In this document: piece by piece, positions 16,580-41,836 of the stretch | Numbering within the stretch: the stretch's first letter is position 1 | Layout: every line of letters starts with the position of its first letter | From: a virus | Reading direction: 5' to 3' (one strand) | IMG/VR virus record: IMGVR_UViG_3300029319_008461 | Span: 1-64,000 of that record | DNA length: 64,000 nt | Notes under the pieces: model-generated | What the model was told of the DNA's origin: nothing | Seen by the model: the letters and a program-made list of their open reading frames with translations, nothing else | Databases searched by the model: none | Translations under genes and position numbers: made by a program

Positions 16580-17845
16580 TTGTCCGACAAGAAAATAAAG
16601 GTCCTAACAATTAGTGACCATCCCTTGTTACCTTCTGGGGTGGGATCTCAGACAAAATATGTTATTCAGGCACTATTAAGCACTGGAAAATTTCAAGTGA
16701 TTTCACTTGGCGGGGCCATCAAGCACCCCAGTTACGAACCAGCAAAAACTACAGAGCACGGAGACGACTGGATCATATTCCCTGTTGATGGGTATGGAAC
16801 ACAGGAGATAATAAGGAACGCTATTACTAGTCACAAGCCAGATATTTTATGGTTTATGACAGATCCAAGGTTTTATGAGTGGTTGTGGGATTTTGAAGAT
16901 GAAATCAGGGCAGTTGTTCCGATGGTTTATTACCATGTTTGGGATAACTATCCACTGCCTAAGTTTAACAAACCATTTTACATGTCTAACGACGTTATTG
17001 CCACAATATCGAAAGTCACGTCTGACATTGTTCAGAACGTCGCCCCAGAAGTTGAGGAGCACTACATTCCGCATGCGGTTAATCCAACTATTTTTAGAAA
17101 ACATGCAACACCCCAAGAACTTATATCTCTTAATAGTATCCGAAGAGATAATAACTTAGAGGGTAAATTTGTCGCATTTTGGAACAACCGAAATGCAAGA
17201 AGGAAAATGAGCGGCTCTGTGGTATGGTGGTGGAAGACTTTTTGTGACGAGGTAGGCCACGATAACGCCTCTCTAATAATGCATACGGACACAAACGATC
17301 CCCACGGTCAGCCACTAGAATTTTTAGCTCATGAGTTAGGACTTACCGGGGGTCAAATAACTTTTTCAAAGGACAAGGTTCAACCTGAACATCTAGCCAT
17401 ATATTACAATTTAGCCGACGTAACAATAAATATTGCTGACGCCGAAGGGTTTGGACTTGCGACATTGGAATCGTTGTCTTGTGGAACACCTGTTGTTCTT
17501 ACAAAAACTGGTGGATTACAAGAGCAAATATCTGACGGCAAGAATGAATTCGGCGTAGGTATTGAACCAACTTCCAGGGCAGTCATAGGATCTCAACAGG
17601 TGCCATACATTTATGAGGACAGGATTAACGAGGAAGTTTTTGTTGCTGCCTTAAAAAAGATGTACGATATGCCTAAAGAAGATAGAGCTAAACTGGGTGA
17701 CCTTGGAGCAGAGCATGTCCGTAAAAATTATAACTTTGAACAATTTAATAAACAATGGACAGATTTGATGTTAAATGTTTATGAGGAGCGTGGTTCCTGG
17801 GAGAACAGAAAAAATTATCAAGCGTGGGAGTGTATTGAATTATGA
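16580..17845 (+). CDS. GT-B glycosyltransferase (GT4-like)
   Basis: DAEGFGLATLESLSCGTPVV; TTG start after GGAGG. Confidence 0.9.
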   Translation: MSDKKIKVLTISDHPLLPSGVGSQTKYVIQALLSTGKFQVISLGGAIKHPSYEPAKTTEHGDDWIIFPVDGYGTQEIIRNAITSHKPDILWFMTDPRFYEWLWDFEDEIRAVVPMVYYHVWDNYPLPKFNKPFYMSNDVIATISKVTSDIVQNVAPEVEEHYIPHAVNPTIFRKHATPQELISLNSIRRDNNLEGKFVAFWNNRNARRKMSGSVVWWWKTFCDEVGHDNASLIMHTDTNDPHGQPLEFLAHELGLTGGQITFSKDKVQPEHLAIYYNLADVTINIADAEGFGLATLESLSCGTPVVLTKTGGLQEQISDGKNEFGVGIEPTSRAVIGSQQVPYIYEDRINEEVFVAALKKMYDMPKEDRAKLGDLGAEHVRKNYNFEQFNKQWTDLMLNVYEERGSWENRKNYQAWECIEL

Positions 17846-19116
17846 TTAAAGTTATATTGAAAGGTCCTATTCTGAGTCGTAGTGGCTACGGCGAACATAC
17901 GAGATATATGTATAGAGCCTTAGCATCTCGGCCAGATATTTTTGATTTGTACATTCATCCCACTGGATGGGGACAGTCAAGTTGGGTTCTGACCGGCAAA
18001 GAAACGAGAGCAGTTGAAAAATGTATTGAAAAAATACACCACTTCAAAGGTACGTTTGATTTGTCCTTGCAAGTATTAATACCCAGCGAATTTGAAAACA
18101 TAGCCACTAAGAATATTGGAGTTACTGCTGCTGTAGAGACTACGGCTGCTTCAGCACAATGGATTAACAAGGCTAATCATATGGACGCTGTATTTGTAAC
18201 CTCTGAACACGCAAAAAAATCTCTGGTGACTCCAAACTATTCTGTGAAAGCAGAAGATGGGATGACATATGAAATTATGATGCAAAAACCCGTCGAGGTT
18301 ATTTCGTACCCGTTTAGAGAATTTGAAAACAACAAGGACACTCACAAGAGAATTGATCTTGAAACAGAATTTAATTTTTACACGTCCGCACAATTTGGAC
18401 CAAGAAAAAACTTAATGAACACTATTCATTGGTTTGTTCAAGAATTTAAAGACGATGAGGACGTTGGCCTTGTTGTTAAAGCACACCATAAAAACAATAG
18501 TCAAATCGATCGTCAAAAGATGATTGTTCAATTATCAGCAGCAGTTCATAGTGTGCCTCATAGAAAGTGTAAAGTCTATTTGCTTCATGGATCGATGGAA
18601 GATGACGAGATGAACTCGGTTTATACGCATCCTGACATTCACGCTTACATTACAGCAACACACGGTGAGGGTTTTGGGTTGCCAATATTTGAAGCAGCTT
18701 GTAATGGACTCCCAGTAGTTGCTCCGGCTTGGTCAGGACATGTTGATTTTTTATATGACAATGTTAAAAATGAAAAATCAGGACGTGTAAAAAGAACTCC
18801 AATGTTTACGAAAGTAAAATATACACTTGGAAAAATACAACAAGAGGCAGTTTGGGATACTGTTCTCAATGCCGAGACCGAGTGGTGTTATCCAGATGAG
18901 GCAGCTTTTAAAAAGGCTGTCAGAAGTGTTAAGACTGCTTATATAGCTAAGAAAAAGACAGCAGAGAAATTGCAAGAATCTCTTAGGGAAAGACTAGACC
19001 AAGATAAGATGCTTCAATATGTTGTCGATAGAGTCTTGGAGGTCTGTCCGCAAGATTTTGTTGAACTGGAGGGCTTCTTTAATAATCTCTCTGAAGAATT
19101 AGAAGTTCATGACTAG
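17842..19116 (+). CDS. GT-B glycosyltransferase (GT4-like)
   Basis: SRSGYG, PRKNL and HGEGFGLPIFEAACNGLPVV motifs. Confidence 0.9.
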   Translation: MIKVILKGPILSRSGYGEHTRYMYRALASRPDIFDLYIHPTGWGQSSWVLTGKETRAVEKCIEKIHHFKGTFDLSLQVLIPSEFENIATKNIGVTAAVETTAASAQWINKANHMDAVFVTSEHAKKSLVTPNYSVKAEDGMTYEIMMQKPVEVISYPFREFENNKDTHKRIDLETEFNFYTSAQFGPRKNLMNTIHWFVQEFKDDEDVGLVVKAHHKNNSQIDRQKMIVQLSAAVHSVPHRKCKVYLLHGSMEDDEMNSVYTHPDIHAYITATHGEGFGLPIFEAACNGLPVVAPAWSGHVDFLYDNVKNEKSGRVKRTPMFTKVKYTLGKIQQEAVWDTVLNAETEWCYPDEAAFKKAVRSVKTAYIAKKKTAEKLQESLRERLDQDKMLQYVVDRVLEVCPQDFVELEGFFNNLSEELEVHD

Positions 19117-19957
19117 GATACATTTTATTGCCGATGTTTTTGCGGAACAACATCTTGGAGGTGGAGAACTAAGCAACCAAGAGTTGATAAAGTTACTAGG
19201 GCAAAAAGATAAAGAAGTTATTCAGTGTCTTTCTGCGCAAGTCACCCCAGATTACATCTTGGAAAATAGGGGTGATAAATTCATTGTTGGGAATTTCTTA
19301 GGCCTGTCCGAGGACAGCAAGAAATGTTTGATGGACAATTGTAGTTACATAATTTACGAACACGACCACAAGTATTTAATCTCTAGAGATCCGTCTGTGT
19401 ATGAAAATTATCAGGCACCTGATAGTCATATCATAAATAAAGATTTTTATGAATCATCAGTAGGTGTTATTTGCCAGTCAAAACTTCACAGAGATGTTGT
19501 TAAACAAAACTTAAAACTTGATAATATTATCTCAGTTGGTGGCAATCTTTGGGATGATCACACCCTTAATCTTTTACGAAAACTTTGTAACAAGGACAAA
19601 CGTCAGCGCTACTCAATCTGGGATTCTGTGAATCCGATTAAGAACACTCCAATGACAGTTGCTTACTGCAAAAGAAATGAAATACCTTTTGACTTAGTTG
19701 GCTTTCTTCCTTATGATAAGTTTTTAGAGGACATCACTAACAATGATACTTTTATATTTTTGCCTCAAACTTTAGAAACTCTATGTCGAGTAGCTGTTGA
19801 GTGTAGAATGGCCGGAATGAAAGTTATCACCAATAAGAAAATCGGAGCCTCAAGCGAAGATTGGTTTAAATTAAAGGGAGAAGAGTTGATAGACTATATG
19901 GCAGAAAAGAAACACCAAATATGTCTTAAGGTGGAGGAGTTGTTTGATGAGTCCTAA
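19109..19957 (+). CDS. divergent GT-B glycosyltransferase
   Basis: GGGELS near the N-terminus; ETLCRVAVECRMAGMKVI (E-x7-E). Confidence 0.7.
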   Translation: MTRIHFIADVFAEQHLGGGELSNQELIKLLGQKDKEVIQCLSAQVTPDYILENRGDKFIVGNFLGLSEDSKKCLMDNCSYIIYEHDHKYLISRDPSVYENYQAPDSHIINKDFYESSVGVICQSKLHRDVVKQNLKLDNIISVGGNLWDDHTLNLLRKLCNKDKRQRYSIWDSVNPIKNTPMTVAYCKRNEIPFDLVGFLPYDKFLEDITNNDTFIFLPQTLETLCRVAVECRMAGMKVITNKKIGASSEDWFKLKGEELIDYMAEKKHQICLKVEELFDES

Positions 19958-20684
19958 GTTTACAATTATTATACCCTGTTATAATGCCGAGAACTATATT
20001 GAACAATGTGTCAAATCAGCGCTGAATCAAGACTATGAAAACTTTGAAGTTATTGTTGTTGATAATGATAGTGGCGATGATAGTTATGAAATAGTGGAAT
20101 CCCTCCAGGATGAATATGATTTCTCCCTTGATACAGCACAAAACTTATATCCTTTCTCTTGGTCAGAACCAGTTGAAAAGGCCCTAGAAGAATTTACGGG
20201 AGATTACTTTACTATCTTGGGTGCAGACGATTACCTGTCCCCAGATTATGTTTCCAATATTATGAAATATATTCAAGAGTCTGATGAGGAGATCCACTGT
20301 TTTCAGAGTGCCCTTAGGACCGTAGATAAAAACGGAGAATTGCAAGGTGGAGAATTATCTCACGATTACAATGACTTAGATGATCTAAAGGAAAAATTAC
20401 TCGATAGGTGCGTTGTGACCACACCGTCAGTTGTTTTTTCTAGAGAATTATTCCGAAAAGGTTTGACAAAGTGGGACTCTGAAAATTATCTTGGTGCAGC
20501 AGATTACGCTTTATATTTCTCACTTGTTGACGAGGGAGTGCATATTCACCTTAACAAAGAGTGGTTAGGATACTACTATAGATGGCACGAAAAGCAGGCC
20601 ACCTGGGGAATGCAACAACAACCTGTCAATTATGACTTTATGCTACAGAATAAGTGGCGTCAAAAGTGGGAAAATGAAAACTAG
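19947..20684 (+). CDS. GT2 glycosyltransferase
   Basis: IIIPCYNAE, VVDNDSGD, GADD and ADY motifs. Confidence 0.9.
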   Translation: MSPKFTIIIPCYNAENYIEQCVKSALNQDYENFEVIVVDNDSGDDSYEIVESLQDEYDFSLDTAQNLYPFSWSEPVEKALEEFTGDYFTILGADDYLSPDYVSNIMKYIQESDEEIHCFQSALRTVDKNGELQGGELSHDYNDLDDLKEKLLDRCVVTTPSVVFSRELFRKGLTKWDSENYLGAADYALYFSLVDEGVHIHLNKEWLGYYYRWHEKQATWGMQQQPVNYDFMLQNKWRQKWENEN

Positions 20685-22469: not shown

Positions 22470-23399
22470 ATGTCTAAGGAAAGAAAAAAAGTAACAATCC
22501 TAACTCTTAGGAAAAATAAAAGAGAAAATAAAAAATCAGTTTTTGTAACAGCATACGACTACCCACAAGCAATGTTAGCTCATAGGGCTGGTGTGGATGG
22601 GATATTGGTTGGTGACTCACTTGGTATGACCACACTAGGTCACAAAACAACAATTCCAGTTACAATGGATGATATGATTAGGCACGCAGAGGCCGTTGCT
22701 AGGGGTGCAAAGGCTCCATTCCTAGTTGGAGATATGCCTTACATGTCTTATCAAGCATCTAATGCTGATGCTGTTCGTAATGCTGGAAGATTTATTAGAG
22801 CCGGAATGGACGCTGTAAAGGTAGAAGGAGCAATGGTCGATCGCATCAAAGCCATCGCTGATGCGGGCATCCTAGTGCAAAGCCACCTGGGACTAACTCC
22901 TCACACCATGGCAATGCAGGGAGGATATAGAGTCCAGGGAAAAACAGCAAAAAGCACAGAAATAATTCTCAACCAAGCGCTAGAACTTCAGGAAGCAGGT
23001 TGTGCGTTTTTGTTACTAGAGGCAATGCCAAGAGAATCAGCGCAGGCAGTAGCAAGAGAATTATCAATACCTGTTTTTGGTATTGGTGCTGGTGATCTTG
23101 TCGATGGCCAGTTAGTTATTATGCATGACCTTGTTGGTCTTTTTTGGGACTTCAAATCAAAGTTTGTAAAAAGATATTGTGAAGCCGGTGCTATGATTCA
23201 AGATTCTCTAGAGCAATACGCTCAAGAGGTTCGAGATGGGTCATTCCCGTCCGAAGAAAACTTTTACGAAATTAAAGACGAGGAACTGGAAAAAATTACC
23301 AATTGGAAATACGAAACTGATCAAGGATTCCCAACGAATCACAGTGCTACGCCTAATACTGTTACACCTAAAAAAGATATATTTGACGGTAAAAAATGA
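22470..23399 (+). CDS. panB: ketopantoate hydroxymethyltransferase homolog
   Basis: TAYDY, LVGDSLGM, GDMP, AVKVEG, HLGLTP, GIGAG and DGQ motifs. Confidence 0.9.
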   Translation: MSKERKKVTILTLRKNKRENKKSVFVTAYDYPQAMLAHRAGVDGILVGDSLGMTTLGHKTTIPVTMDDMIRHAEAVARGAKAPFLVGDMPYMSYQASNADAVRNAGRFIRAGMDAVKVEGAMVDRIKAIADAGILVQSHLGLTPHTMAMQGGYRVQGKTAKSTEIILNQALELQEAGCAFLLLEAMPRESAQAVARELSIPVFGIGAGDLVDGQLVIMHDLVGLFWDFKSKFVKRYCEAGAMIQDSLEQYAQEVRDGSFPSEENFYEIKDEELEKITNWKYETDQGFPTNHSATPNTVTPKKDIFDGKK

Positions 23400-24232
23400 G
23401 AGTTCTCATAACTGGACGGAACGGGTTTCTTGCAAGGGAGCTATCCGATCGTCTTGACGATTTTGAGGTAACCTGTGTCGGTCGCCAAGAGGTGGACCTC
23501 ACTAACTCTCATAATGTTGATTTATTTTTTGAAGATAAAACTTTTGATGCTGTTTTGCACACAGCCATTATTGGTGGACGTCGAGGACAACAAGATGAGT
23601 TTAAAGATTTTTCTGACAACGTATCAATGTTCAGTAACTTACTAAGACATAAAGATAAGTTTAACAAGTTTATAAACTTTTGTTCTGGTGCGGCCTTTGG
23701 AAGATGTGCTGACATATATGAGTGGCACGAAAACAGAATCCATTCTTGGCTGCCTGGCGGAGGCGACTATTATGGAATGTCAAAAAACATAATTGGACGA
23801 GAGTGCAATAAGCTGGATGGTTTTTATAATTTAAGATTGTTTGGATGTTTCGGGTTTCATGAAGCAGAAAAAAGGTTTGTTAAATCAGCTTTGGAAAAAG
23901 CATTAGTTGGAGAACCAATAGTTATTCATCAGAATAAAATGATGGACTATATTTCTGCTGAAGATATCTGCACAGTGGTAAGACATTATCTTGTGAGTGA
24001 TATTAAAAAAGAACTTCAGGACATTAATATTTGCTATGAGGACAAAACCACTCTGAGAGGTATTGCGGTAAAAATTGTAAACTTAACAAAATCAGAATCA
24101 GAGATAATAATAGAAGAGCCAGGATTCTCTGTATCATATACAGGCAACGCTGATAAGTTGAAAAGTCTTAATTTAAGCCTGCAAGGAATAGAAAAGGGAC
24201 TCTTAGCTCTCTTGGAGAAATTAATTGGATAA
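23396..24232 (+). CDS. NAD-dependent sugar epimerase/reductase
   Basis: TGRNGFLA; YGMSK catalytic motif. Confidence 0.85.
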   Translation: MRVLITGRNGFLARELSDRLDDFEVTCVGRQEVDLTNSHNVDLFFEDKTFDAVLHTAIIGGRRGQQDEFKDFSDNVSMFSNLLRHKDKFNKFINFCSGAAFGRCADIYEWHENRIHSWLPGGGDYYGMSKNIIGRECNKLDGFYNLRLFGCFGFHEAEKRFVKSALEKALVGEPIVIHQNKMMDYISAEDICTVVRHYLVSDIKKELQDINICYEDKTTLRGIAVKIVNLTKSESEIIIEEPGFSVSYTGNADKLKSLNLSLQGIEKGLLALLEKLIG

Positions 24233-25568
24233 GCTTCAAAAAATACTTTCACTAGTCGAAGAATATGCTCAAGAAAACCTTTTAGATAAAAGCTGGGAAC
24301 CTGGACAATGGGTTAATTATTCTGGACCTCATTTTAGCACTGACGAGTTTCGGGCAGCCGTCGAGGCTTTGCTAGGTGGCTGGCTTGTGTTTGGAAAGAA
24401 GGCCAGAGTTTTTGAACAAACATTCCCGGAGCACTTAGGTAAAAACTTTGGGATGTTAACAAACTCAGGAAGCTCAGCCAACTTGATAATGACTCAAGCT
24501 TTAACTAGTAAAAAAAGCTTTATGAAAAAGTATCATTTACCTAAGGGTAGTAAGATTATCACCCCAGTGGTTTGTTTCCCAACAACCTTGAATCCTATTA
24601 TACAGACAGGATATGAACCAGTATTTGTAGACGTGGACTTGCCATCTTTGAACTTAAATTTAGATCAGGTAGAAAAAATCCTTGAAGAGGATAGTTCAAT
24701 CAGAGGTATTGTTTTTGCTCACGTTCTGGGAAATCCTCCTGATATGGATAGGCTTATGCATTTAGTTGATAAGTATAAACTTATTTTCTTGGAGGATTCA
24801 TGTGATGCCTTGGGTTCTTTTTATGATGATAAAAAACTAGGTTCCTTCGGGCACATGTCAAGCTGTTCATTTTACCCCGCTCATCATATGACTTTGGGAG
24901 AGGGCGGATTTGTAGCTACAGATGACCCAAGACTCAGAAGGGCGTTGGCCAGTTTTAGAGACTGGGGTCGTGCTTGTTATTGTAACGAGCAAAAACCTGG
25001 AGACGTCACTGCTGGAACAGCTTGCGGCAATAGGTTTAAGCCCTGGCTTAAATACGGCAAAGAAAGAATAAATTATGATCACCGTTATGTGTTCGATGAG
25101 ATTGGTTTTAACTTGAAGCCGCTAGAGTTACAAGCAGCTATTGGACTAGAACAACTACATAAGCTACCGGAGATGGATTCAGCCAGACGGGAAAACTTTC
25201 GATCTTTCACTAAAATATTTTCAAAATACGAGGAGTATTTTATGCTCCCGAGGGCTACAGATAAATCAGATCCAAATTGGTTTGGATATTTGTTGACAGT
25301 TAAAGAAGGTAGCGGGTTCAGTCGTGAGCAGTTTGTCCAGCATTTAGAGGACAACAAAATACAGACAAGATCTTATTTTGCAGGGAATTGTTTATATCAT
25401 CCGGCTTATGTAGAGTTCGCTAGCAAATACGACAATCTTAGGGACGAGTTTCCTAATGCTCACAAGGCCACAGTCGGATCTTTTTTTCTAGGAACCTTTA
25501 TTGGTATAACAGAGCAAAAATTAAACTATATTGAGGGGGTTGTTGATGAGTTCTTCAAAAACCTATGA
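24225..25568 (+). CDS. rfbH: NDP-4-keto-6-deoxyglucose 3-dehydrase (RfbH/DdhC/AscC family)
   Basis: NSGSSAN, EDSCDALGS and SFYPAHHM.LGEGG (His in place of the PLP Lys); RDWGRACYC...C Fe-S cysteines. Confidence 0.88.
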   Translation: MDKLQKILSLVEEYAQENLLDKSWEPGQWVNYSGPHFSTDEFRAAVEALLGGWLVFGKKARVFEQTFPEHLGKNFGMLTNSGSSANLIMTQALTSKKSFMKKYHLPKGSKIITPVVCFPTTLNPIIQTGYEPVFVDVDLPSLNLNLDQVEKILEEDSSIRGIVFAHVLGNPPDMDRLMHLVDKYKLIFLEDSCDALGSFYDDKKLGSFGHMSSCSFYPAHHMTLGEGGFVATDDPRLRRALASFRDWGRACYCNEQKPGDVTAGTACGNRFKPWLKYGKERINYDHRYVFDEIGFNLKPLELQAAIGLEQLHKLPEMDSARRENFRSFTKIFSKYEEYFMLPRATDKSDPNWFGYLLTVKEGSGFSREQFVQHLEDNKIQTRSYFAGNCLYHPAYVEFASKYDNLRDEFPNAHKATVGSFFLGTFIGITEQKLNYIEGVVDEFFKNL

Positions 25569-25569
25569 T

Positions 25570-32293: not shown

Positions 32294-32652
32294 ACAAAGT
32301 TTCACTAGATATGAAACACGTTGACAAAGGATGGGGCTTTGAACGTTGGATTGTTAATAAAGAAGAATATTGTGGCAAGTTACTATTCTTTAATAAAGAT
32401 AAAAGATGTTCTTGGCATTACCATAAAATAAAAGATGAAGTTTTTTATTTGCAGTCTGGTAAAATGATTGTAAAGTATGGAGACACAGATAGTCTCGAAG
32501 AGGCCAATGAGATAGTCCTTAACCCAGGAGACAACTTCTATGTTTATGTGGGACTAAGACATCAAATGATAGCGTTAGAAGATTCAGAATTGTTTGAGTT
32601 TTCAACACAGCATTTTGATAGTGATAGTTATAGGGTGGTAAAAGGTGACTAA
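32287..32652 (+). CDS. cupin-fold sugar isomerase-like protein
   Basis: KGWG.E, SWHYH..KDE and H...E motifs. Confidence 0.8.
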   Translation: MVNKVSLDMKHVDKGWGFERWIVNKEEYCGKLLFFNKDKRCSWHYHKIKDEVFYLQSGKMIVKYGDTDSLEEANEIVLNPGDNFYVYVGLRHQMIALEDSELFEFSTQHFDSDSYRVVKGD

Positions 32653-33568: not shown

Positions 33569-33959
33569 AAAATATTTACCAACACTTTCAGAGTTGATTG
33601 ATAGATTATCTATCGCTCAACTTAAGGAGGTGTTTATCACTGATCACAAAGAAGAGTATGCGCAAGAGATTAAAGATATCGTTCACGATATAGACTTGTG
33701 CCTAAAAGAGACAAAACATCTAAACGCAGAAGTTATTAGAGCCGTGGTCGTGTTATCTCAGATGAATCTTCACATTTGGCACAATGAATCAAATTATAGA
33801 AAAGGCATAAAGGACGGCAATAACTTGGAATTAACTCATGGTCTTAACGGTATCCGCAATACGGCCAAGAATAAAATTCAAGAGATTGCCGGTGGGCGAA
33901 AAGACTACAAAATAGATTGTCTGGCTGCGGAGTTCAAGGACTGGGATATTAGCTGGTAA
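33561..33959 (+). CDS. helical hypothetical protein typical of sugar clusters
   Basis: TLSELIDRLSI..LK...N..IWH.E...N..R...K motif. Confidence 0.7.
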   Translation: MTRKYLPTLSELIDRLSIAQLKEVFITDHKEEYAQEIKDIVHDIDLCLKETKHLNAEVIRAVVVLSQMNLHIWHNESNYRKGIKDGNNLELTHGLNGIRNTAKNKIQEIAGGRKDYKIDCLAAEFKDWDISW

Positions 33960-33961: not shown

Positions 33962-34444
33962 ATGTTTTTCCCAGAGGTTAAGATTTTTGAAGCTGATATG
34001 TTTAGGGAATATCGTGGAGATATTTGGACAACGTATAAGAAAAAAACATTCCCAGTAGACTTAGATTTTGTACACGACAAGTTCTCATCCTCCAGGAGAA
34101 ACGTAATCCGAGGAATACATGGAGACTATAAAACTTGGAAACTAGTAAGTTGTCTGCAAGGTGAACTGTATTTCGTTGTAGTTGATAACAGAAAAGAATC
34201 ACAAAATTACCTTAAGTGGGATTGTATGATGCTTGATGACAAAGACCGTAGACAGGTTTTGTTACCCCCTGGGTTTGGAAATGGATTTTGTGTGATGAGC
34301 GACTCTGCTGTATTTAGTTACAAGTTGGCCTATGAAGGTGAATACTCGGACGTCGATCAGCAATTTACCTTAAAATGGAATGATACTCATGTTAACATAA
34401 ACTGGCCAATAGATAGCCCAATATTACAAGCGAGAGATAAATGA
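33962..34444 (+). CDS. rmlC: NDP-4-keto-6-deoxysugar 3,5-epimerase (RmlC family)
   Basis: RG, S..NVIRGIH, VVVD.R, PPGFGNGF and W.D....WP motifs. Confidence 0.85.
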   Translation: MFFPEVKIFEADMFREYRGDIWTTYKKKTFPVDLDFVHDKFSSSRRNVIRGIHGDYKTWKLVSCLQGELYFVVVDNRKESQNYLKWDCMMLDDKDRRQVLLPPGFGNGFCVMSDSAVFSYKLAYEGEYSDVDQQFTLKWNDTHVNINWPIDSPILQARDK

Positions 34445-35067
34445 ATATACCTGACCACCTAGAAAAAGTTAGAGAGGTATCTTTAACCCCCCAGGAGTTG
34501 ATTGATTTTGAAACAAAAGTCAAAGAAACATATGAGGCTGGAAAAATTAAAGGACCAATCCATCTAGCCAAGAATAATGAAAATGAACTGATAGAAATAT
34601 TCCAGTACATAAGCCCCGATGATTGGGTTTTTGTTCCCTGGAGAAATCACTATCACGCTCTTTTGCACGGCGTTGACCCTGACAAATTGTTTAATTCAAT
34701 TGTAGAAGGTAGAAGTATGGGCACAAATAATTTAAAGCCAAACTTTTATGCCTCCTCGATTGTTGGTGGTATCATACCTCTTGCACTGGGGGTTGCTTTG
34801 GGGATCAAACAGAGAGGTAAAAACAATCGTGTTTGGTGTTTTGTTGGTGACATGACTATGGAGACTGGTGTGTTCCATGAGGCTTACAAATATAGTAAGA
34901 ACTTTGATCTACCCATCCAGTGGGTTGTTGAGGATAATGATATGAGTGTTCACACCCCAACCGATATGGCCTGGGGTAAAAAACAAGAGGTACCTGATGG
35001 TGTAATTTATTATAGATATGAAATGGAATATCCTCATCACGGAACAGGAAAGTGGGTAAATTTTTAA
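34441..35067 (+). CDS. ThDP-dependent E1-alpha-like subunit (short)
   Basis: GPIHL, WRNHYH, SSIVGG and GD...G...E...EDN motifs. Confidence 0.85.
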   Translation: MNIPDHLEKVREVSLTPQELIDFETKVKETYEAGKIKGPIHLAKNNENELIEIFQYISPDDWVFVPWRNHYHALLHGVDPDKLFNSIVEGRSMGTNNLKPNFYASSIVGGIIPLALGVALGIKQRGKNNRVWCFVGDMTMETGVFHEAYKYSKNFDLPIQWVVEDNDMSVHTPTDMAWGKKQEVPDGVIYYRYEMEYPHHGTGKWVNF

Positions 35068-35603
35068 TGAAATATAAAAGCGAACTTATCAGATCTATGA
35101 ACTGGCTTGCTAAGAAGAGAGATACAGTGTTTCTTGGGCAAGCTTGTAAAGTTAGTGGTCACGCTATTTCTAGCACCTTGGTAGAAGTTCCTGATGAAAA
35201 AAGAATTGAACTACCTGTATTTGAGGAAACTCAAATGGGCATCTCAACAGGTATGGCTCTGGAAGGGTATGTGCCAATTACAATGTATCCTCGATTTGAT
35301 TTTTTTATTCTAGCTTGCAATCAATTAGTGAATCATCTTGATAAAATGAGAGATATGTCAAAAGGGGAAATGACTCCTCGTGTTATTATAAGAGTAGCTG
35401 TCGGAACAAAGAATCCTATTGATGCGGGACCGCAGCATACTCAAGATCACACAGAGGCTTTTCGCAGAATGTTAACCGAAGTGAACGTTGTGGATCTTTT
35501 TGAGCCAGAGGATATCTTCGCAGCTTTTAAAGAGGCATATGAGAGGCCTGATTCAAAATCAACACTATTAATTGAACACGGAGAATTTTATGGGACAAAA
35601 TAG
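35067..35603 (+). CDS. E1-beta/transketolase pyrimidine-binding-like subunit (short)
   Basis: ELPVFEE..MG...G.AL.G, NQLVNH and GPQH.Q motifs. Confidence 0.85.
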   Translation: MKYKSELIRSMNWLAKKRDTVFLGQACKVSGHAISSTLVEVPDEKRIELPVFEETQMGISTGMALEGYVPITMYPRFDFFILACNQLVNHLDKMRDMSKGEMTPRVIIRVAVGTKNPIDAGPQHTQDHTEAFRRMLTEVNVVDLFEPEDIFAAFKEAYERPDSKSTLLIEHGEFYGTK

Positions 35604-36765
35604 TTTTTCTTGGCCTTTGATAAATGATAATATAACAGAGGAAGATAAGGCTGCTTTGATTAAGTGGTTGCAAGAACCTAACGTTAGATTTACTCAATCA
35701 AAGTATGTAAAAAAATTTGAACAAGCTTGGTCTGAATGGCTTGGAGTTAAATATACAGTCTTTGTAAACTCTGGTGCGTCTGCCAACTACATTATGACTT
35801 CAATTATGAAGGAGCTTAAAGGTGGCGGCGAAGTGATTGTACCGCCAATTGGCTGGGTCTCTGATATAGCTCCAGTGGTCAATCTTGGGATGACTCCTGT
35901 TTTTGTGGATGTTGATCCTGAGAGTTTGGCCATTACTGCTGAGAACATTGAAAATGCAATCACAGACAAGACAGTTGGGATTGTGTTAGTTCATGCATTG
36001 GGGTTCAATGGCTTGACTGACAAACTTGTAGAACTCGCAGAAAAACACAACCTAATTTTGATTGAGGATTGCTGCGAGTCTCACGGCGCTACGTTCGATG
36101 GACAAAAGATTGGAACTGTTGGCGATATGTCAAATTTTTCTTTCTACTTTGGACACCATATCACAACAGTCGAAGGTGGGGTTGTTTGCACAAACGATAA
36201 GAATATCTATGAGCTAGCGAAGATGTTTAGGTCACACGGAATGATTAGGGAAGCTGGGGATGAGGTATATGATGCATACACAGAAAAATATCCAGACTTA
36301 AACCCACTGTTTCTTTTTGCCGTCCCTGGATATAATCTAAGGAATACAGAGTTCAATGCTGTGTTGGGACTTGAGCAATTAGGAAGGTTAGATAGAGCAG
36401 CTACGATTAGGGCAGAAAATTTTAAGACCTGGATTGATAACTTAGATACTAACAAGTTTCAAACAAGTTATCTTGAAGAAGGTAACAGTAGCTTTGCACT
36501 GCCACTAATTCTGAGAGAAAAAGATAAAGATTTGTTTGAAAGAGTCTGTTCTGTTTTGCGGCAAGAAAGAGTAGAGTATCGCATTGGAACCGCTGGCGGT
36601 GGCAACCAAGCTAGGCAACCTTATCTAGAAAAGTACGATCATAGGATTGTGGGTAACCTAGAGATCTCAGATCACATACATGATTTTGGACTTTACATTG
36701 GTAACCATACCGAACTTGAAAAAGAAACTATTATTAAATTGTGTGAGGTTATAAATGACTGTTGA
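35590..36765 (+). CDS. DegT/DnrJ family PLP enzyme, ColD-like GDP-4-keto-6-deoxymannose 3-dehydratase
   Basis: NSGASAN, EDCCESHGA and SFYFGHHITTVEGG (His in place of Lys); RSHG; no Fe-S Cys cluster. Confidence 0.8.
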   Translation: MGQNSFSWPLINDNITEEDKAALIKWLQEPNVRFTQSKYVKKFEQAWSEWLGVKYTVFVNSGASANYIMTSIMKELKGGGEVIVPPIGWVSDIAPVVNLGMTPVFVDVDPESLAITAENIENAITDKTVGIVLVHALGFNGLTDKLVELAEKHNLILIEDCCESHGATFDGQKIGTVGDMSNFSFYFGHHITTVEGGVVCTNDKNIYELAKMFRSHGMIREAGDEVYDAYTEKYPDLNPLFLFAVPGYNLRNTEFNAVLGLEQLGRLDRAATIRAENFKTWIDNLDTNKFQTSYLEEGNSSFALPLILREKDKDLFERVCSVLRQERVEYRIGTAGGGNQARQPYLEKYDHRIVGNLEISDHIHDFGLYIGNHTELEKETIIKLCEVINDC

Positions 36766-37732
36766 TTTTAAAAACCAAAGTGTTTTAGTTACTGGCGGGA
36801 CTGGGATGATAGGCCGCCAACTTGTTGATCTGTTGGTAGAGAGAGGAGCTAAGGTATATGTTGTATCTCTTGACCCTCCGAGGGGACTGCCTGAGGGTGT
36901 GATGTACAAGCTTGCAGATCTTACAGACTTCTCTGCTTGTCAGGAAGTTTGTGAAGGCATGGATTATGTTTTCAATTTGGTGGGCGTTAAGGGTTCCCCA
37001 AAGATGTGCAAGGAACAGCCAGCAGACTTTATGGTTCCGATGCTCCAGTTCAATACCAATATGATGGAAGCAGCAAGGCGTGCAGGAGTAAAGTGGTATT
37101 TGTACACTAGTAGTGTGGGTGTTTATCATCCAGCGGAGGTTTTTAAAGAAGATGATGTTTGGTCAACTTTTCCGTCGGACAACGATAGGTTTGCTGGCTG
37201 GGCGAAAAGAATTGGAGAACTGCAAGCAGAAGCGTATAGTATCCAGTATGGTTGGGATTGTGTTTCGATCGTAAGGCCCGCAAACGTTTACGGACCATAT
37301 GATAACTTTGACCCAGAGAATGCAATGGTCATCCCTTCGCTGATTCGCAAAGCGTTTGAAAATGATAAACTGGAAGTTTGGGGAGATGGCTCTCCGATTA
37401 GAGATTTTATCCACTCCAGAGATGTAGCCTTGGGTATGCTTCACATGGTAGACAACAAAGTGACAAAACCTGTCAACCTTGGTAGCGGTGAAGGGATCGC
37501 AATTAAGCAGATTGTGGATATCGTTGTTGACAAATGTCCTAAGGATCTTGATGTAGTCTGGCAAACAGACAAGCCAACTGGCGACAAAAAAAGAATCCTT
37601 GATTCTTCCCGTGCAAAAGAAGTAGGGTTTCAGACAACAATCAGCCTCGAAGAGGGTATTCAGGAAACGATCGAATGGTTTGAAGAAAACAGGAGTATGA
37701 TTGATGACAGGCATAATGCCTTTAGGAAATAG
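36755..37732 (+). CDS. NAD-dependent epimerase/reductase (GDP-fucose synthase/GME-like)
   Basis: TGGTGMIG, RPANVYGP.DNF, VIPSLI and WGDGSP.RDF motifs. Confidence 0.85.
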   Translation: MTVDFKNQSVLVTGGTGMIGRQLVDLLVERGAKVYVVSLDPPRGLPEGVMYKLADLTDFSACQEVCEGMDYVFNLVGVKGSPKMCKEQPADFMVPMLQFNTNMMEAARRAGVKWYLYTSSVGVYHPAEVFKEDDVWSTFPSDNDRFAGWAKRIGELQAEAYSIQYGWDCVSIVRPANVYGPYDNFDPENAMVIPSLIRKAFENDKLEVWGDGSPIRDFIHSRDVALGMLHMVDNKVTKPVNLGSGEGIAIKQIVDIVVDKCPKDLDVVWQTDKPTGDKKRILDSSRAKEVGFQTTISLEEGIQETIEWFEENRSMIDDRHNAFRK

Positions 37733-38438
37733 TGTACTTGTTACAGGTGGTAACAGTGGCCTTGGTAAATACATTGCATCCAACATTAATTGTGTTGCGC
37801 TAACCAGAGAAAACGCTGAATCTGTCTTTAAAAGACACAACCACTTTGACTTGATTATACACTGTGCGTTTAATGCCTCAAAGAAAACCAATGATTACTA
37901 CAAAGTTTTACAAGACAATATTTTCTTAACAAAGCGTTTGTGTTCATTGTCTCACAACAAATTTGTATTCTTATCGTCAATTGATGTTTACCGAGAAGAG
38001 GATAGTCTTTATAAAACAACAAAATTAATGGCAGAGTCTATTGTTAAAGAAGAAGCGACAAACCCATTAATTGTTCGGACAAGTGCCATTGTTGGCCCAA
38101 CAATGAGAACTAATAGTCTCTTAAGAATACTGGATGACGATAGTCCGGACTTATCCTTGTCTGAAAATTCAACGTTTAACTATGTTCTACAAAGTGATAT
38201 ACTGTCTATGATACAGGTGTCTGCAAAGAACAAATACTCTGGTATTATAGACTTTGTGGCATCAAAAAATATAAGACTTAAAGACCTGGCAACTCATTTT
38301 TCTAAGACTGTAAATTTTGGAGACTACTTTTATGAAACACCTATTATATCAAACAGGCATCTTCAAGAAAAATTCCCAACAGCTTGGTATACATCACTAG
38401 GAAATATTGAAAGATTTATGAAGGAAAGAACCAAATGA
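37716..38438 (+). CDS. NAD-dependent epimerase/dehydratase family protein (short)
   Basis: TGGNSGLG, SSIDVY and YKTTK motifs. Confidence 0.75.
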   Translation: MPLGNSVLVTGGNSGLGKYIASNINCVALTRENAESVFKRHNHFDLIIHCAFNASKKTNDYYKVLQDNIFLTKRLCSLSHNKFVFLSSIDVYREEDSLYKTTKLMAESIVKEEATNPLIVRTSAIVGPTMRTNSLLRILDDDSPDLSLSENSTFNYVLQSDILSMIQVSAKNKYSGIIDFVASKNIRLKDLATHFSKTVNFGDYFYETPIISNRHLQEKFPTAWYTSLGNIERFMKERTK

Positions 38439-39394
38439 AAAAAATTCTTTTGTGCGGTGCCACTGGGTTTATTGGTAAGAACTTGTTAGAGCACTTCTCC
38501 AGCAGAGGGAATTATAGTATTCGAGCGATATATCACAATAAACTTCCAGACATTGAGCCGAGCGAACATCCTAATGTTGAGTTTATTTTTGCTGATTTAA
38601 ACAATAAGGAAGATGTAGACAGAGTAATGGAGGGCGTAAACATTGTTCTCCAGTTTGCAGCCACAACTTCTGGGGCCAAAGATATTACAACAAAGCCGTT
38701 CATTCACGTTACAGATAATGCAGTTATGAACTCTTTGTTGTTACGATCTGCCTATGAGAATAATGTTGAACATTTTGTTTTCCCGAGTTGCACGGTGATG
38801 TACCAGCCGAGTGAAGAGGCTCTATCTGAGGACGATTTCTCTGGAGAAGACGAAATATACCCAAAATACTTTGGTGTGGGTAATACAAAAGTTTATATTG
38901 AAAAGATGTGCGACTTCTACTCTAGGCTTGGAAGAACAAAACACACAGTTATTAGACACTCTAATATATACGGACCTCATGACAAGTACGATCTTGAGCG
39001 CAGTCATGTCTTTGGCGCAACCGTAACTAAAGTTATGACTGCAAAAGATAAAGTTGTTATGTGGGGGACCGGAGAGGAAAAGAGAGATCTTCTACACGTT
39101 GATGATTTGTGCAGGTTTGTTGAATTAGCTTTAAAGAACCAGAAGAAAGAATATGAGTTATTCAACGTTGGCCTGGGTCAAGCGGTTCCGGTTCGTGACC
39201 TTGTTCAGAAAATTATCAACGCTTCAGGTAAGAGGCTAAAGATTGAATCAGATTTAACTAAACCAACTATTAAAACTAGTTTATACTTGGATTGGAAAAA
39301 AGCGTTTACTACGTTAGGTTGGTGCCCCGAGATAACTCTTGATAAGGGGATAGAGAAAACTTTGAAGTGGTATAAGGAAAATATAGATGTCTAA
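38435..39394 (+). CDS. NAD-dependent epimerase/reductase (GDP-fucose synthase-like)
   Basis: GATGFIG, RHSNIYGP.D, SHV and WGTGEE.RD motifs. Confidence 0.85.
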   Translation: MKKILLCGATGFIGKNLLEHFSSRGNYSIRAIYHNKLPDIEPSEHPNVEFIFADLNNKEDVDRVMEGVNIVLQFAATTSGAKDITTKPFIHVTDNAVMNSLLLRSAYENNVEHFVFPSCTVMYQPSEEALSEDDFSGEDEIYPKYFGVGNTKVYIEKMCDFYSRLGRTKHTVIRHSNIYGPHDKYDLERSHVFGATVTKVMTAKDKVVMWGTGEEKRDLLHVDDLCRFVELALKNQKKEYELFNVGLGQAVPVRDLVQKIINASGKRLKIESDLTKPTIKTSLYLDWKKAFTTLGWCPEITLDKGIEKTLKWYKENIDV

Positions 39395-40397
39395 AAATGT
39401 CTTTATCACTGGTGTTACGGGAATGGTCGGCTCTCACTTAGCCGACTTTCTTTTAGAGAATACAGATTGGAAAATTTATGGGTTCTGTAGGTGGAATGAT
39501 AATTTTGAAAATATACAGCACTTATTTCCAAGAATAAACACAAAAGACAGGGTGCAGTTAATTTATGGTGACTTAAATGATTTCCCGTCTCTCATGACCG
39601 CTGTTGAGGAGTCAGCGCCTGATTATGTTTTTCACCTAGCGGCCCAGAGTTATCCTCAGACTAGTTTTGTGGCTCCTTTGGAGACTCTTGAGACAAATAT
39701 CCTTGGCACTGCAAAACTTTTGGAAGCCATTAATAAATCACCGTATGATCCTGTGATACATGTATGCGCTAGTTCTGAGGTCTTTGGAAGGGTGCCAAAA
39801 GAATATTTACCAATTAATGAAGAGGTCACGTTTCACCCCGCCTCTCCATATGCTATTTCTAAAGTGGGGACTGACCTAATCGGTAGGTACTATGCCGAAG
39901 CTTATGGTATGACTGTGATGACAACAAGGATGTTTACTCACACAGGACCAAGAAGAGGTGATGTTTTTGCAGAGTCAACTTTTGCAAAACAGATTGCTAT
40001 GATTGAGTCTGGAAAACTCCCTCCTGTTATCAAGGTTGGAAATTTACAGTCACTAAGAACTTGGTCTGATGTCCGAGATGCGGTTAGAGCGTATTATTTG
40101 CTTGTAACTCACAACCCAACAGCCGGAGAGTATTATAATATTGGCGGCACTTACAGTTGTACAGTGGAGGATATGTTAAATTATCTCATCAGCCAATCAA
40201 CAGTTAAGAATATAAAAGTTGAAACGGACCCCGAGAGGCTCCGACCAATTGATGCAGATTTGCAGGTCCCTGATACGGCCAAGTTTAAAAGCCACACTGG
40301 ATGGGAACCAACGATACCTTTTGAGGAAACAATGACTGACTTACTGAACTACTGGAGAGAAAAGGTTCAGGGCGACAGGGAGTTCCTATCTAGATAA
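39387..40397 (+). CDS. gmd: GDP-mannose 4,6-dehydratase-like protein
   Basis: ITGVTGMVGSHL, HLAAQS, ASSEVFG, SPYAISK, GNL.S.R and RLRP.D motifs. Confidence 0.8.
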   Translation: MSKNVFITGVTGMVGSHLADFLLENTDWKIYGFCRWNDNFENIQHLFPRINTKDRVQLIYGDLNDFPSLMTAVEESAPDYVFHLAAQSYPQTSFVAPLETLETNILGTAKLLEAINKSPYDPVIHVCASSEVFGRVPKEYLPINEEVTFHPASPYAISKVGTDLIGRYYAEAYGMTVMTTRMFTHTGPRRGDVFAESTFAKQIAMIESGKLPPVIKVGNLQSLRTWSDVRDAVRAYYLLVTHNPTAGEYYNIGGTYSCTVEDMLNYLISQSTVKNIKVETDPERLRPIDADLQVPDTAKFKSHTGWEPTIPFEETMTDLLNYWREKVQGDREFLSR

Positions 40398-41140
40398 TGT
40401 CTTCTAAAGTTTTAGTCATAGGCGAAAGCTGCAAGGATGTTTTTAATTACGGTAACTGTGATCGCTTGTGTCCTGACGCCCCGGTTCCTGTTTTCAACGG
40501 GACGGCAACTACAGTATCCGACGGCATGGCAATGAATGTCTTACACAACATTAAATCACTTGGAGTTGAGTGTGACATTATAACTAATAGCAATTGGCAA
40601 CTGATTAAAAAAAGTAGGTACATTGATAACAAAACAAACCAGATGCTTTTACGAATTGATGAAAACGATGAGGTGATAGACGAGCTTGACCTGTCTTTAC
40701 TTGAAAAGAATATAAAAAACTACGGTGCGGTTATTATATCTGATTATTGCAAGGGATATCTCTCTGAAGAAATTATGGCAAAGATATCTAAAATGCACGA
40801 TAAGGTTTTTTTAGATACCAAAAAACTATTAGGCGATTGGTGTGACGATATGGCATACATCAAGATAAACTATTATGAGCATGCCAGAACCAAACATCTA
40901 CTAAAGAAAAGTTTATACGATCAGCTTATAATAACTCTTGGCTCCAATGGGTGTGAACACCGTGGCAAAACTTATCCCGTAGAGAAGGTAGAGATAAAAG
41001 ACTCTTCAGGCGCTGGCGATACATTTATAGCAGGACTTGTGGCCGAGTATTTGAAAAATTATAGCATAGATGATGCAATACATTTTGCTAACCAATGTGC
41101 CACAAAAGTTGTTCAAAAGCGAGGTGTAAGTATAGTATGA
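40397..41140 (+). CDS. HldE/RfaE-type heptose kinase domain (PfkB family)
   Basis: RLCPDAPVPV, ISDY.KG and D.SGAGDTF motifs. Confidence 0.85.
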   Translation: MSSKVLVIGESCKDVFNYGNCDRLCPDAPVPVFNGTATTVSDGMAMNVLHNIKSLGVECDIITNSNWQLIKKSRYIDNKTNQMLLRIDENDEVIDELDLSLLEKNIKNYGAVIISDYCKGYLSEEIMAKISKMHDKVFLDTKKLLGDWCDDMAYIKINYYEHARTKHLLKKSLYDQLIITLGSNGCEHRGKTYPVEKVEIKDSSGAGDTFIAGLVAEYLKNYSIDDAIHFANQCATKVVQKRGVSIV

Positions 41141-41535
41141 AGATTGTGTGGACAAATGGTTGTTTTGATGTTTTGCATCGTGGACATATTGAATTGTTTA
41201 AATATGCGAGATCATTAGGCGATAAACTTATTGTTGGTCTTGATACAGATGAGAAAGTCAAAGCTGCTAAGGGCGATGATCGGCCATTTAACACTCTAGA
41301 AGATAGAGAGTTTTTAGTAAGATCGATAAGATATGTTGATGATACAATTTCATTTTCATCAAAAAGTGATTTAGAAAGCTTAATAAAATCCATAAAGCCT
41401 GATATTCTTGTTGTAGGATCAGATTGGGAAGGAAAATATGTCGTTGGCTCACAATATGCAAAAGAACTAAAGTTTTTTGATCGTATTGGTGAATATTCAA
41501 CGACTAAAGTTTTAAAAAATGCTAATCTACGTTGA
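41137..41535 (+). CDS. HldE/RfaE-type heptose nucleotidyltransferase domain
   Basis: TNGCFDVLHRGH, KG..RP, GSDW and YSTT motifs; true start at 41137. Confidence 0.88.
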   Translation: MKIVWTNGCFDVLHRGHIELFKYARSLGDKLIVGLDTDEKVKAAKGDDRPFNTLEDREFLVRSIRYVDDTISFSSKSDLESLIKSIKPDILVVGSDWEGKYVVGSQYAKELKFFDRIGEYSTTKVLKNANLR

Positions 41536-41836
41536 CATAGACGATACAATTTGCACTTACGAGGGAGAGCGTCACTATCCAGACGCCATCCCAATTATGG
41601 AAAGAATACAAAAAATTAATGACCTTTATGACGAAGGTCATCAAATAGTTTATTGGACAGCTAGGGGTGGCACTACAGGGATTGACTGGACGGAGCTAAC
41701 CAACCAACAATTGAAAGATTGGGGTGTGAAGTGCCATGAGATTAAGATGTGGAAGCCACCTTACGATTTGTTCATATGCGATAAAGCCATAAACACTTTA
41801 GAATATTTTAAGGAGAAAAAAAGTGAAATTATCTAA
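41519..41836 (+). CDS. small HAD-family phosphatase
   Basis: DIDDT, WTARG and KP..D..I.DK motifs. Confidence 0.82.
   Translation: MLIYVDIDDTICTYEGERHYPDAIPIMERIQKINDLYDEGHQIVYWTARGGTTGIDWTELTNQQLKDWGVKCHEIKMWKPPYDLFICDKAINTLEYFKEKKSEII

Follow-up and report, generated by a model that had tools for sequence, protein, structure and literature searches.

Among bacteriophages, O-glycosylation of the virion is established for mycobacteriophages (Freeman et al. 2023, as cited in the portion of PMC12619734 available to us). Here we report on IMG/VR virus record IMGVR_UViG_3300029319_008461, a single 80,844-bp virus contig with no terminal repeat that is rated 45% complete; its source is an uncultured marine tailed phage, and its first 64 kb, the whole stretch of 64,000 nucleotides that was analysed, is called the window below. 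A run of 30 open reading frames (ORFs), all on the + strand, fills positions 16559-41836 of the window and encodes six glycosyltransferases together with enzymes for rare nucleotide sugars. We hold it to be about an even chance, a probability of roughly 0.5, that this block is a phage-encoded and fully soluble glycosylation system which most likely acts on baseplate and fibre proteins of the phage itself.

The mycobacteriophage system reportedly combines a few phage transferases with host sugars and places glycans at the C-termini of capsid and tail-tube subunits. As far as it is described in the material available to us, its likeness to the present locus would lie in soluble phage transferases that act on the phage's own structural proteins in the cytoplasm with no lipid carrier. 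Unlike the mycobacteriophage system, the locus holds six transferases and about 24 sugar-pathway genes, and the searches gave no homology between the two: no actinophage is among the 7 phage records that match the first transferase of the core (GT4a), and two further transferases, a GT-B-fold protein and a Maf-like protein, have no match in any of 50,697 phage records.

Adjacent genes for Maf, NeuB and a cytidine monophosphate (CMP)-sugar synthetase are typical of cytoplasmic flagellin glycosylation islands. Those of Campylobacter, Helicobacter, Aeromonas and Magnetospirillum resemble the phage block in having a soluble PF01973 enzyme beside a NeuB-type synthase and a CMP-synthetase; they differ from it in that the phage protein consists of the central domain only, that Foldseek favours CstII/Cst-I for it, and that the phage has no flagellin. 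Bacterial O-antigen and capsule loci likewise contain nucleotide-sugar synthesis genes and several glycosyltransferases, whereas no initiating transferase, polytopic flippase, polymerase or ABC permease was found here. Giant-virus clusters of the Mimivirus type comprise soluble pathways for rare amino and deoxy sugars and transferases that decorate the virion fibrils, but they belong to eukaryotic viruses with unrelated virion proteins, and the likeness is one of description only. Finally, the cyanophage clusters labelled as lipopolysaccharide (LPS) or cell-wall clusters occur, as far as the available parts of PMC9602691 and PMC12801897 describe them, in marine myoviruses and hold many glycosyltransferases with nucleoside diphosphate (NDP)-sugar dehydratases, epimerases and RmlC. 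The present block, too, joins several transferases and NDP-sugar genes in a marine T4-like myovirus context (gp25, gp6) with no export genes. It differs from the cyanophage clusters in being one gap-free 30-gene run with a nonulosonate set, a PanB/ALS-like pair and a split E1-like thiamine pyrophosphate (TPP) enzyme; its core genes, the GT4 pair and GT-B among them, were not found by BLASTP in the four Kyanoviridae/T4 genomes examined (T4, AG-345-L05, P-RSM6 and S-CAM1). The phage also represents a different lineage, its nearest GenBank phages by the gp6-like protein (29-32%) being Microcystis phage Mel-JY01 (32%), the uncultured phage LR756508 (32%) and Flavobacterium phage immuto (29.5%).

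A conserved transferase core with exchangeable sugar cassettes

The first-pass annotation of this DNA had described a cluster of coupled sugar genes, which is borne out at 16559-41836, and had counted 27 genes in it where ORF calling gives 30. At each of the 29 junctions the ORFs either overlap by 1-53 nt or stand 2-3 nt apart, and no gap of at least 25 nt occurs in the ORF set from 13739 to contig position 67253. The GC content over the cluster is 0.37-0.41, the same as in its flanks, and GC skew is positive throughout. A minus-strand ORF at 41088-41594 was discarded as spurious, as two + strand ORFs there match families. Megablast of the cluster against the 50,697 phage records gave no match, so that by DNA it has no close phage relative in that set. 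By protein, the gp6-like sequence matches 12 IMG/VR loci at 42-86% identity, among them the relatives referred to here as G004 (86%), G001 (60%; 190,528 bp, rated 100% complete) and G003 (47%). All six glycosyltransferases that had been claimed (two GT4, one GT-B, one GT2, one GT10-like and one Maf/Cst-like) are supported, by Pfam or, for GT-B, by the fold of its AlphaFold model (quality given as predicted local distance difference test, pLDDT):

16559..17845, + strand, GT4 glycosyltransferase 'a' (GT4a), the most deeply conserved core member; PF00534 50.9 bits against a cut-off of 26.4
17842..19116, + strand, GT4 glycosyltransferase 'b' (GT4b); PF20706 32.5 bits, PF00534 29.1 against a cut-off of 26.4
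19109..19957, + strand, compact GT-B fold glycosyltransferase of 282 aa; AlphaFold model with pLDDT 94.1
19944..20684, + strand, GT2 glycosyltransferase; PF00535 94.6 bits, 8.5e-27; 43-75% identity in G001, G003 and G004
26524..27477, + strand, Maf/CstII-like putative nonulosonate transferase of 317 aa, central domain only; PF01973 44.6 bits against 34.6
32645..33568, + strand, GT10-like transferase; PF00852 33.9 bits against a cut-off of 23.9

All three relatives are collinear with the window from PhoH through to the baseplate genes. The nuclease, GT4a, GT4b, GT-B, GT2, reductase, RfbH and dehydratase genes are present in each of them, the core from GT4a to the dehydratase at 38-86% identity, and the modules 3' of it are replaced. 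G004 has a nearly identical nonulosonate set, G001 a divergent one (26-41% identity) and G003 none. Of the three, G004 alone carries the block from 33561 to 41594; the downstream anchor, from 41823 on, is again conserved in every one of them. The lineage thus has the cluster as a fixed feature, its transferase core conserved and its sugar cassettes exchangeable. A misassembled host locus, which had been named as a finding that would overturn the annotation, is ruled out by the uniform GC content and skew and by the same gene order in four independent contigs. The description of the phage as a jumbo phage is unsupported: the contig is 80,844 bp long, and since the genome of the complete relative is about 190 kb the lineage falls short of the jumbo threshold (200 kb).

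The GT-B protein belongs to a family that is invisible to domain databases, with no match in Pfam or PHROG and no Pfam domain in any of its 563 metagenomic homologues. Foldseek matches its model to BshA (E 1e-7) and also to HepE, Gtf3, GtfC, TarM and PimA. The Maf-like protein has 134 metagenomic homologues of 293-378 aa, and its PF01973 match spans residues 204-248 only. Its model (pLDDT 94.5) is ranked by Foldseek with CstII/Cst-I first (1ro8/2x61, E 6e-6 to 8e-6, probability 1.00, template modelling score 0.38-0.49), and by VIA-align the best structural match is Maf 5mu5 (Z 13.3, root-mean-square deviation 3.9, 205 residues aligned), with CstII and MptE HPPK (both Z 11.4) a small margin below. 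It aligns to chain residues 260-511 of the 632-residue Maf, and it lacks the N- and C-terminal domains that flank this part in full-length Maf (about 630 aa). Membership of the GT42 sequence family was not found: a Pfam scan (E <= 0.01) gave PF01973 only, and a PDB search (E <= 1) gave no sialyltransferase. Going by the models, the protein is a predicted minimal member of the Maf/GT42/MptE superfamily and probably a CMP-nonulosonate transferase. Its step is probably one of capping and not of priming, because the module is missing in G003, which retains the transferase core.

Where the glycan would be attached

The cluster had been described as free of any initiating transferase, flippase, polymerase or exporter, and both Pfam and hydropathy agree. 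Pfam finds no WecA, WbaP, Wzx, Wzy or ABC family (no PF00953, PF02397) in any cluster protein, and by a crude hydropathy test (Kyte-Doolittle, 19-residue window, threshold 1.6) none of 73 contig ORFs has two or more hydrophobic segments (7 have one), while two further ORFs have none. The single segments in the proteins starting at 26524 (residues 215-245) and 34441 (residues 102-123) were rejected as membrane anchors, since both fall within matches to soluble domains. Export genes elsewhere in the genome, which the annotation had listed as contrary evidence, did not appear either: by hydropathy 1 of 230 ORFs in the complete relative G001 has three hydrophobic segments, 6 have two and none has more, and the priming transferase PF02397 was found in none of five related records, with the control positive in 9 of 14 genomes.

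The missing export genes do not alone imply a cytoplasmic acceptor, as had been proposed, because soluble or peripheral transferases could use host lipid-linked intermediates and a host flippase; the proposal is supported in part, in that other evidence favours an acceptor borne by the phage, and protein over DNA. A live alternative, though a less likely one, is that the block remodels the host envelope. Soluble phage enzymes would then supply rare sugars to the host's own lipid-linked routes to LPS, O-antigen or capsule, with the phage transferases at the inner membrane face and the host's priming transferase, flippase and ligase completing the pathway, and the altered surface would block superinfection or the adsorption of progeny to debris. 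This is the usual, untested reading of the multi-transferase clusters in P-SSM2, S-SSM7, S-SCSM1 and S-SCSM2R in the available parts of PMC9602691 and PMC12801897. RfbH, RmlC, GMD-like, heptose kinase, transferase and phosphatase, GT2, GT4 and GT10 proteins are O-antigen and LPS-core families, RfbH-like genes occur in 83 phage records, mostly those of Synechococcus phages, the heptose module is found in S-CAM1 as well, and cassette swapping would also suit the tracking of host serotypes. On this view the phage would depend on the host for all membrane steps, however, because the complete relative has no priming transferase or polytopic protein, and envelope remodelling leaves the motif excess in structural proteins, described below, unexplained.

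The distribution of the GT4 pair in cultured phages also bears on this question. A tblastn search with GT4a (E <= 1e-10) matched 7 of the 50,697 phage records, namely four of immuto and one each of Mel-JY01, LR756508 and Rhodothermus phage RM378, and all seven are relatives by the baseplate protein or share the same nuclease-GT-GT layout. In immuto the order is PD-(D/E)XK nuclease, hypothetical, GT, GT, hypothetical and GT2, followed by an aminotransferase, a methyltransferase, an epimerase and more GTs; in Mel-JY01 it is nuclease, GuaB, a split GT, a 455-aa protein and a GT-A protein; and in RM378 a Pol I-like exonuclease, a GT and a 425-aa protein precede ribonucleotide reductase. Orthologues of GT4b stand right after GT4a in immuto and Mel-JY01 (28% identity, BLASTP). 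The pair is fixed and syntenic, not a sporadic island, and it is conserved in phages of three host phyla with unrelated envelopes, both of which count against envelope remodelling. That it has been kept across hosts with such different envelopes suggests that its acceptor travels with the phage; this is our strongest argument, and at the level of sequence comparison it argues for an acceptor of the GT4 pair that is carried by the phage.

Phage DNA would be one such acceptor, and it had been offered as the alternative to virion proteins. Some or all of the transferases would then glycosylate modified bases as a protection against restriction, as the T4 alpha- and beta-glucosyltransferases do. 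In the relatives the GT4 pair follows a nuclease, among replication genes, the GT-B model resembles the T4 alpha-glucosyltransferase (AGT) in its DNA-bound structure (1y8z, E 3.9e-6), both GT4 proteins pass the Pfam 'GT4-conflict' cut-off, and phage transferases that build multi-sugar glycans on DNA are on report (Pyle et al. 2024, as cited in the available portion of PMC12619734). The enzymes that would prepare a base were not found: thymidylate-synthase-type hydroxymethylase (PF00303) is absent from all five related records, including the complete G001, with the control positive in 10 of 14 genomes, and TGT/DpdA (PF01702) is likewise absent from all five, with a positive control. Tet/JBP (PF12851) was also silent in these five records, as was its control. 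To our knowledge, 30 genes and several rare sugars far exceed the needs of any known DNA glycosylation. Moreover, liquid chromatography with ultraviolet and mass-spectrometric detection of immuto DNA gave dA, dC and dT, with dG fully replaced by fdPreQ1 (324 Da), and the available text of that preprint (bioRxiv 10.1101/2023.04.13.536721) reports no glycosylated nucleoside and uses 'glycosyl' 0 times, although minor or undigested species could escape such an analysis. Taken together, DNA is disfavoured, and we consider it very unlikely to be the acceptor.

As a candidate sequon, the tripeptide [ST]-G-[ST] was counted in ORFs of at least 100 aa and compared with shuffles of each protein, a protein being called enriched at z >= 3 with at least 3 sites. 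Five proteins of the contig are enriched:

54852-56360, + strand, 502-aa protein, candidate acceptor; 7 observed against 1.1 expected, z 5.8
56357 to contig position 67252, beyond the window, + strand, 3631-aa giant protein, candidate acceptor; 34 against 7.1, z 10.4
contig start 76417, ORF, candidate acceptor; 6 observed against 1.3 expected, z 4.4
contig start 77578, ORF, candidate acceptor; 8 observed against 1.4 expected, z 5.9
contig start 9818, ORF; 3 observed against 0.6 expected, z 3.4

By this criterion none of the cluster ORFs of at least 100 aa in the shuffle run is enriched. The sites lie scattered, without a common flanking sequence, and the enriched proteins sit in the baseplate/fibre region. 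In G001, 7 of 173 proteins are enriched, including orthologues of the contig's enriched proteins, and 4 of 7, 4 of 8, 18 of 34 and 4 of 6 site positions are common to the orthologues, at 47-65% identity. The pooled ratio of observed to expected sites differs between genomes with and without the GT4 pair:

This contig, GT4 pair present; 2.23; 5 enriched proteins
G001, GT4 pair present; 1.80; 7 enriched proteins
immuto, GT4 pair present; 2.09; 11 enriched proteins
Mel-JY01, GT4 pair present; 2.61; 14 enriched proteins (13 with more shuffles)
RM378, GT4 pair present; 1.94; 3 enriched proteins (4 with more shuffles)
T4, GT4 pair absent; 0.95; 1 enriched protein
AG-345-L05, GT4 pair absent; 1.14; 2 enriched proteins (1 with more shuffles)
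P-RSM6, GT4 pair absent; 1.44; 5 enriched proteins
S-CAM1, GT4 pair absent; 1.25; 2 enriched proteins

When nine central residues were tested, G alone stood out in the genomes with the GT4 pair, and the excess tracks that pair. It does not track the Maf-like gene, which is missing from G003, immuto, Mel-JY01 and RM378. This signal fits a sequon for the GT4 pair, as a candidate drawn from counts, and does not prove one. Pfam and PHROGs gave nothing useful on the motif-rich proteins besides a weak match to Laminin_G_3.

A further alternative is that the system is directed at another cytoplasmic target, such as a host protein or a non-structural phage protein (in disarming a defence or taking over the host, for example), or that it makes a free or small-molecule glycoconjugate. 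In favour of this, the system is soluble and lacks export genes, the small-molecule transferases BshA and MshA are among the top fold matches of GT-B, and GT4 domains, which modify proteins, lipids and metabolites, have been proposed as effectors of conflict systems, with no acceptor given in the available part of that source (PMC8195603). A single intracellular target, however, would hardly account for a glycan that takes six transferases and has swappable cassettes, and no finding indicates a particular non-virion acceptor, the motif signal lying instead in proteins of the structural region. We therefore judge such a target unlikely.

Several observations weigh against glycosylation of the virion. 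The GT4 pair of the cultured relatives lies in a replication/nuclease neighbourhood and not among structural genes, and the GT-B model also resembles AGT, a DNA-modifying enzyme. The fold search cannot separate Maf, which has a protein acceptor, from CstII, which has a glycan acceptor, on predicted models with Z scores of 13.3 and 11.4. The GT2, GT4, GT10, RfbH and heptose enzymes are typical of LPS/O-antigen synthesis, and transferases of the peripheral kind could draw on lipid-linked acceptors and export supplied by the host. With regard to the motif, the control genomes without the GT4 pair that were scored number only four and include P-RSM6, with its 5 enriched proteins, and the motif-rich proteins are putatively called virion proteins from their position. 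Since all five GT4-pair genomes belong to the same clade, the association may be a single inherited trait of fibre proteins and not a mark of glycosylation. A glycan on the virions of this clade is accordingly an unproven candidate, put forward from gene and motif evidence.

Rare-sugar modules and neighbouring genes

The enzymes for rare nucleotide sugars that had been annotated in the block are confirmed by Pfam, NCBIfam and PHROG matches. They fall into the following modules:

20632-22467, + strand, ALS/YerE-like TPP enzyme; Pfam TPP_enzyme N/M/C, TIGR00118 380 bits, below the cut-off of 538
22464-23399, + strand, PanB; over both NCBIfam cut-offs
23396..26520, + strand, 3,6-dideoxyhexose module of RmlD-like reductase, RfbH-type 3-dehydrase and NDP-hexose 4,6-dehydratase; in G001, G003 and G004
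27474..29047, + strand, short NeuB-type nonulosonate synthase and PseF-like CMP-nonulosonate synthetase; PF03102 5e-72, PF02348 8e-25
29019..32652, + strand, five tailoring enzymes, namely class-III aminotransferase, VOC/glyoxalase, xylose-isomerase-like TIM barrel, SDR and cupin; Pfam, NCBIfam
33561..33959, + strand, 132-aa ORF without a family; no Pfam or PHROG match
33962..40397, + strand, deoxy/amino/branched-sugar module; Pfam, NCBIfam all below equivalog cut-offs; among the relatives in G004 only
40397..41836, + strand, heptose-activation module of PfkB kinase, cytidylyl/adenylyl-transferase-like protein and GmhB/PNK-phosphatase-like protein; PF00294, PF01467, phrog_1238 1.7e-26

The ALS-like and PanB genes sit as an insert within the conserved dideoxyhexose module and are private to the contig, being missing in G001, in G003 and even in G004, which is about 85% identical. 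RfbH scores 450.6 bits with NF011936 against a cut-off of 423; the dTDP-glucose dehydratase (307.8 bits), the NeuB-type synthase (TIGR03569, 250 bits) and the CMP-synthetase (TIGR03584, 128 bits) stay below theirs. Because most equivalog scores are below cut-off, the exact sugars cannot be named. The five tailoring enzymes occur in G004 only, at 91-97% identity. The module at 33962..40397 comprises RmlC, the split E1-alpha/beta-like TPP enzyme, a DegT aminotransferase, three SDR epimerase/reductases (one truncated) and a GMD-like 4,6-dehydratase. The truncated epimerase-like ORF (37701-38438, + strand, 245 aa) covers only the middle of PF01370 and is 72% identical in G004, against 91-98% for its neighbours; it may be decaying or fast-evolving.

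By tblastn against the 50,697 phage records, NeuB has 3 matches and PanB 13, of which one is a clear phage, Microcystis phage MaAM05. The Synechococcus phage S-CAM1 carries, at 176.8-178.3 kb, adjacent homologues of the cupin (32287-32652, 62% identity), PfkB (40%) and the GmhB-like protein (38%), which implies that the heptose-type module moves between unrelated marine phages.

The phage genes said to flank the cluster, phoH and the baseplate genes, are there by Pfam (PIN-PhoH at 13739, gp25 at 52630 and Baseplate_J/gp6-like at 53056). The sigma factor likened to gp55 is unconfirmed: its candidate, ORF 42553-43236, has no Pfam, PHROG or PDB sequence match and gives E 0.055 against T4 gp55 in a pairwise BLASTP. 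The features that delimit the gene run are these:

13344..13667, + strand, transfer-messenger RNA (tmRNA) gene found by ARAGORN; tag peptide ANDDFQLALAA; in the 538-bp gap directly upstream of phoH
13703..13710, + strand, candidate promoter motif CTATTTAA; 36 nt upstream of phoH
13739..15043, + strand, PIN-PhoH fusion, first gene of the gap-free run and not a sugar gene; PF02562 3.6e-49, PF13638 1.6e-23
15729..16568, + strand, exonuclease or PD-(D/E)XK-like nuclease; phrog_69 1.1e-19; 93-94% identity in G001 and G004
52630..54852, + strand, baseplate wedge gp25 and gp6/Baseplate_J-like, the downstream synteny anchor; PF04965 7e-13, PF04865 4.7e-4

Of the + strand hairpins with a T-run that a terminator scan gives for this region, the strongest lies at 13667-13684, after the tmRNA, and by these predictions the two mark the upstream boundary of the transcription unit. 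The motif that had been reported at 13703, as a putative late promoter, is present. All 6 matches of its general form CTATTTAW in the window are on the + strand and 4 of the 6 are in intergenic gaps; the sites include 2435, 4223, 10141 and 13703 and are often 11-127 nt upstream of a start codon. Their number is not above chance (6 against 8.1 expected), so that strand and intergenic position alone are non-random. In G001, 17 of 19 matches are on the + strand, and no exact copy was found upstream of PhoH. On this pattern, CTATTTAW is likely a promoter element, if a putative one. Within the cluster, counts of sigma-70-like promoters and of terminators are at chance level.

The nuclease always precedes the GT4 pair in the relatives, and its homologues adjoin the GT pair in immuto and Mel-JY01; as it is exonuclease-like (phrog_69), it was rejected as a member of the glycan system or as an acceptor. 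Between PhoH and the nuclease lies ORF 15040-15714 (+ strand, 224 aa), with a borderline Pfam match to an ATLF metallopeptidase-like domain (27.9 against 27.4 bits) and 33-68% identity in G001, G003 and G004. Downstream of the cluster follow small ORFs, a VanY/M15 peptidase, a 2201-aa protein, gp25, the gp6/Baseplate_J-like protein, the 502-aa protein and the 3631-aa giant. The peptidase domain is C-terminal in ORF 43570-45072 (+ strand, 500 aa), which stands between the cluster and the baseplate genes, is 56% identical in G004 and has no homologue detected in G001 or G003. The two giant ORFs (46008-52613 and contig 56357-67252, both + strand) lie on either side of the gp25/gp6 genes, and the one weak Laminin_G_3 match is all that Pfam gives for them; the 2201-aa giant has 1 [ST]-G-[ST] site against 1.9 expected.

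Elsewhere in the window, four transfer RNA (tRNA) genes lie within 774-2215 on the + strand (Arg-TCT, Met/CAT, Thr-TGT and Gly-TCC), and the CAT tRNA begins directly after the stop of ORF 1378-1983. The only two clear minus-strand genes of the window, at 5792-7518, encode a VWA-domain protein with three MopE-like metal-binding motifs and a 158-aa protein with an N-terminal hydrophobic segment.

A proposed pathway and its meaning

The pathway that we infer for glycosylation of the virion would begin with transcription from a point beyond the tmRNA terminator, in a unit that takes in phoH and the nuclease before it reaches the cluster. The sugar modules would turn host NDP-sugars and sedoheptulose or heptose phosphates into activated rare sugars, the products being a 3,6-dideoxyhexose (possibly branched), a CMP-nonulosonate, amino and deoxy sugars and a nucleotide-heptose. 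In the cytoplasm, the GT4a/GT4b pair would prime Ser/Thr residues, perhaps those of [ST]-G-[ST], on newly synthesized virion proteins, and the GT-B, GT2, GT10-like and Maf/CstII-like enzymes would extend and cap the glycan. The 3' sugar cassettes would be swapped between related phages in the manner of a serotype locus. The analysis itself gives the genes and their solubility, the synteny with its exchanged cassettes, the folds and the motif counts; the acceptor, the sequence of steps, the nature of the sugars and the timing are inferred from these.

A more specific proposal, which we put forward tentatively and with less confidence than the general one, is that an entire clade of aquatic myoviruses, from Rhodothermus phage RM378 to abundant uncultured marine phages, carries dedicated virion O-glycosylation, in which the GT4 pair primes Ser/Thr at [ST]-G-[ST] on baseplate/fibre proteins and a swappable cassette of up to about 25 genes builds the glycan, here with nonulosonic acid, possibly a PanB-extended branched 3,6-dideoxyhexose, and heptose. 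If true, this would be the first sequon-directed and the most elaborate protein glycosylation system known in bacteriophage, and a counterpart of the fibril glycosylation of giant viruses; the main texts of a limited body of literature gave no instance of a virion bearing a nonulosonate that the phage encodes, and none of a phage system directed by a sequon.

Whatever the acceptor, the block holds uncharacterised sugar chemistry in its PanB and ALS/YerE-like pair, its split E1-like TPP enzyme, a minimal Maf/CstII-like family and a GT-B family without Pfam domains. The conserved transferase pair in three cultured phages (immuto, Mel-JY01 and RM378) makes the question of its acceptor directly testable. 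Should that acceptor be the virion, glycosylation of virions would reach beyond the actinobacteriophages, and marine phage particles would bear complex glycans of their own specification that vary from strain to strain. Adsorption, stickiness to mucus or particles, the ability to withstand proteases and grazers, and the response of host defences that recognise the phage could all be shaped by such a coat.

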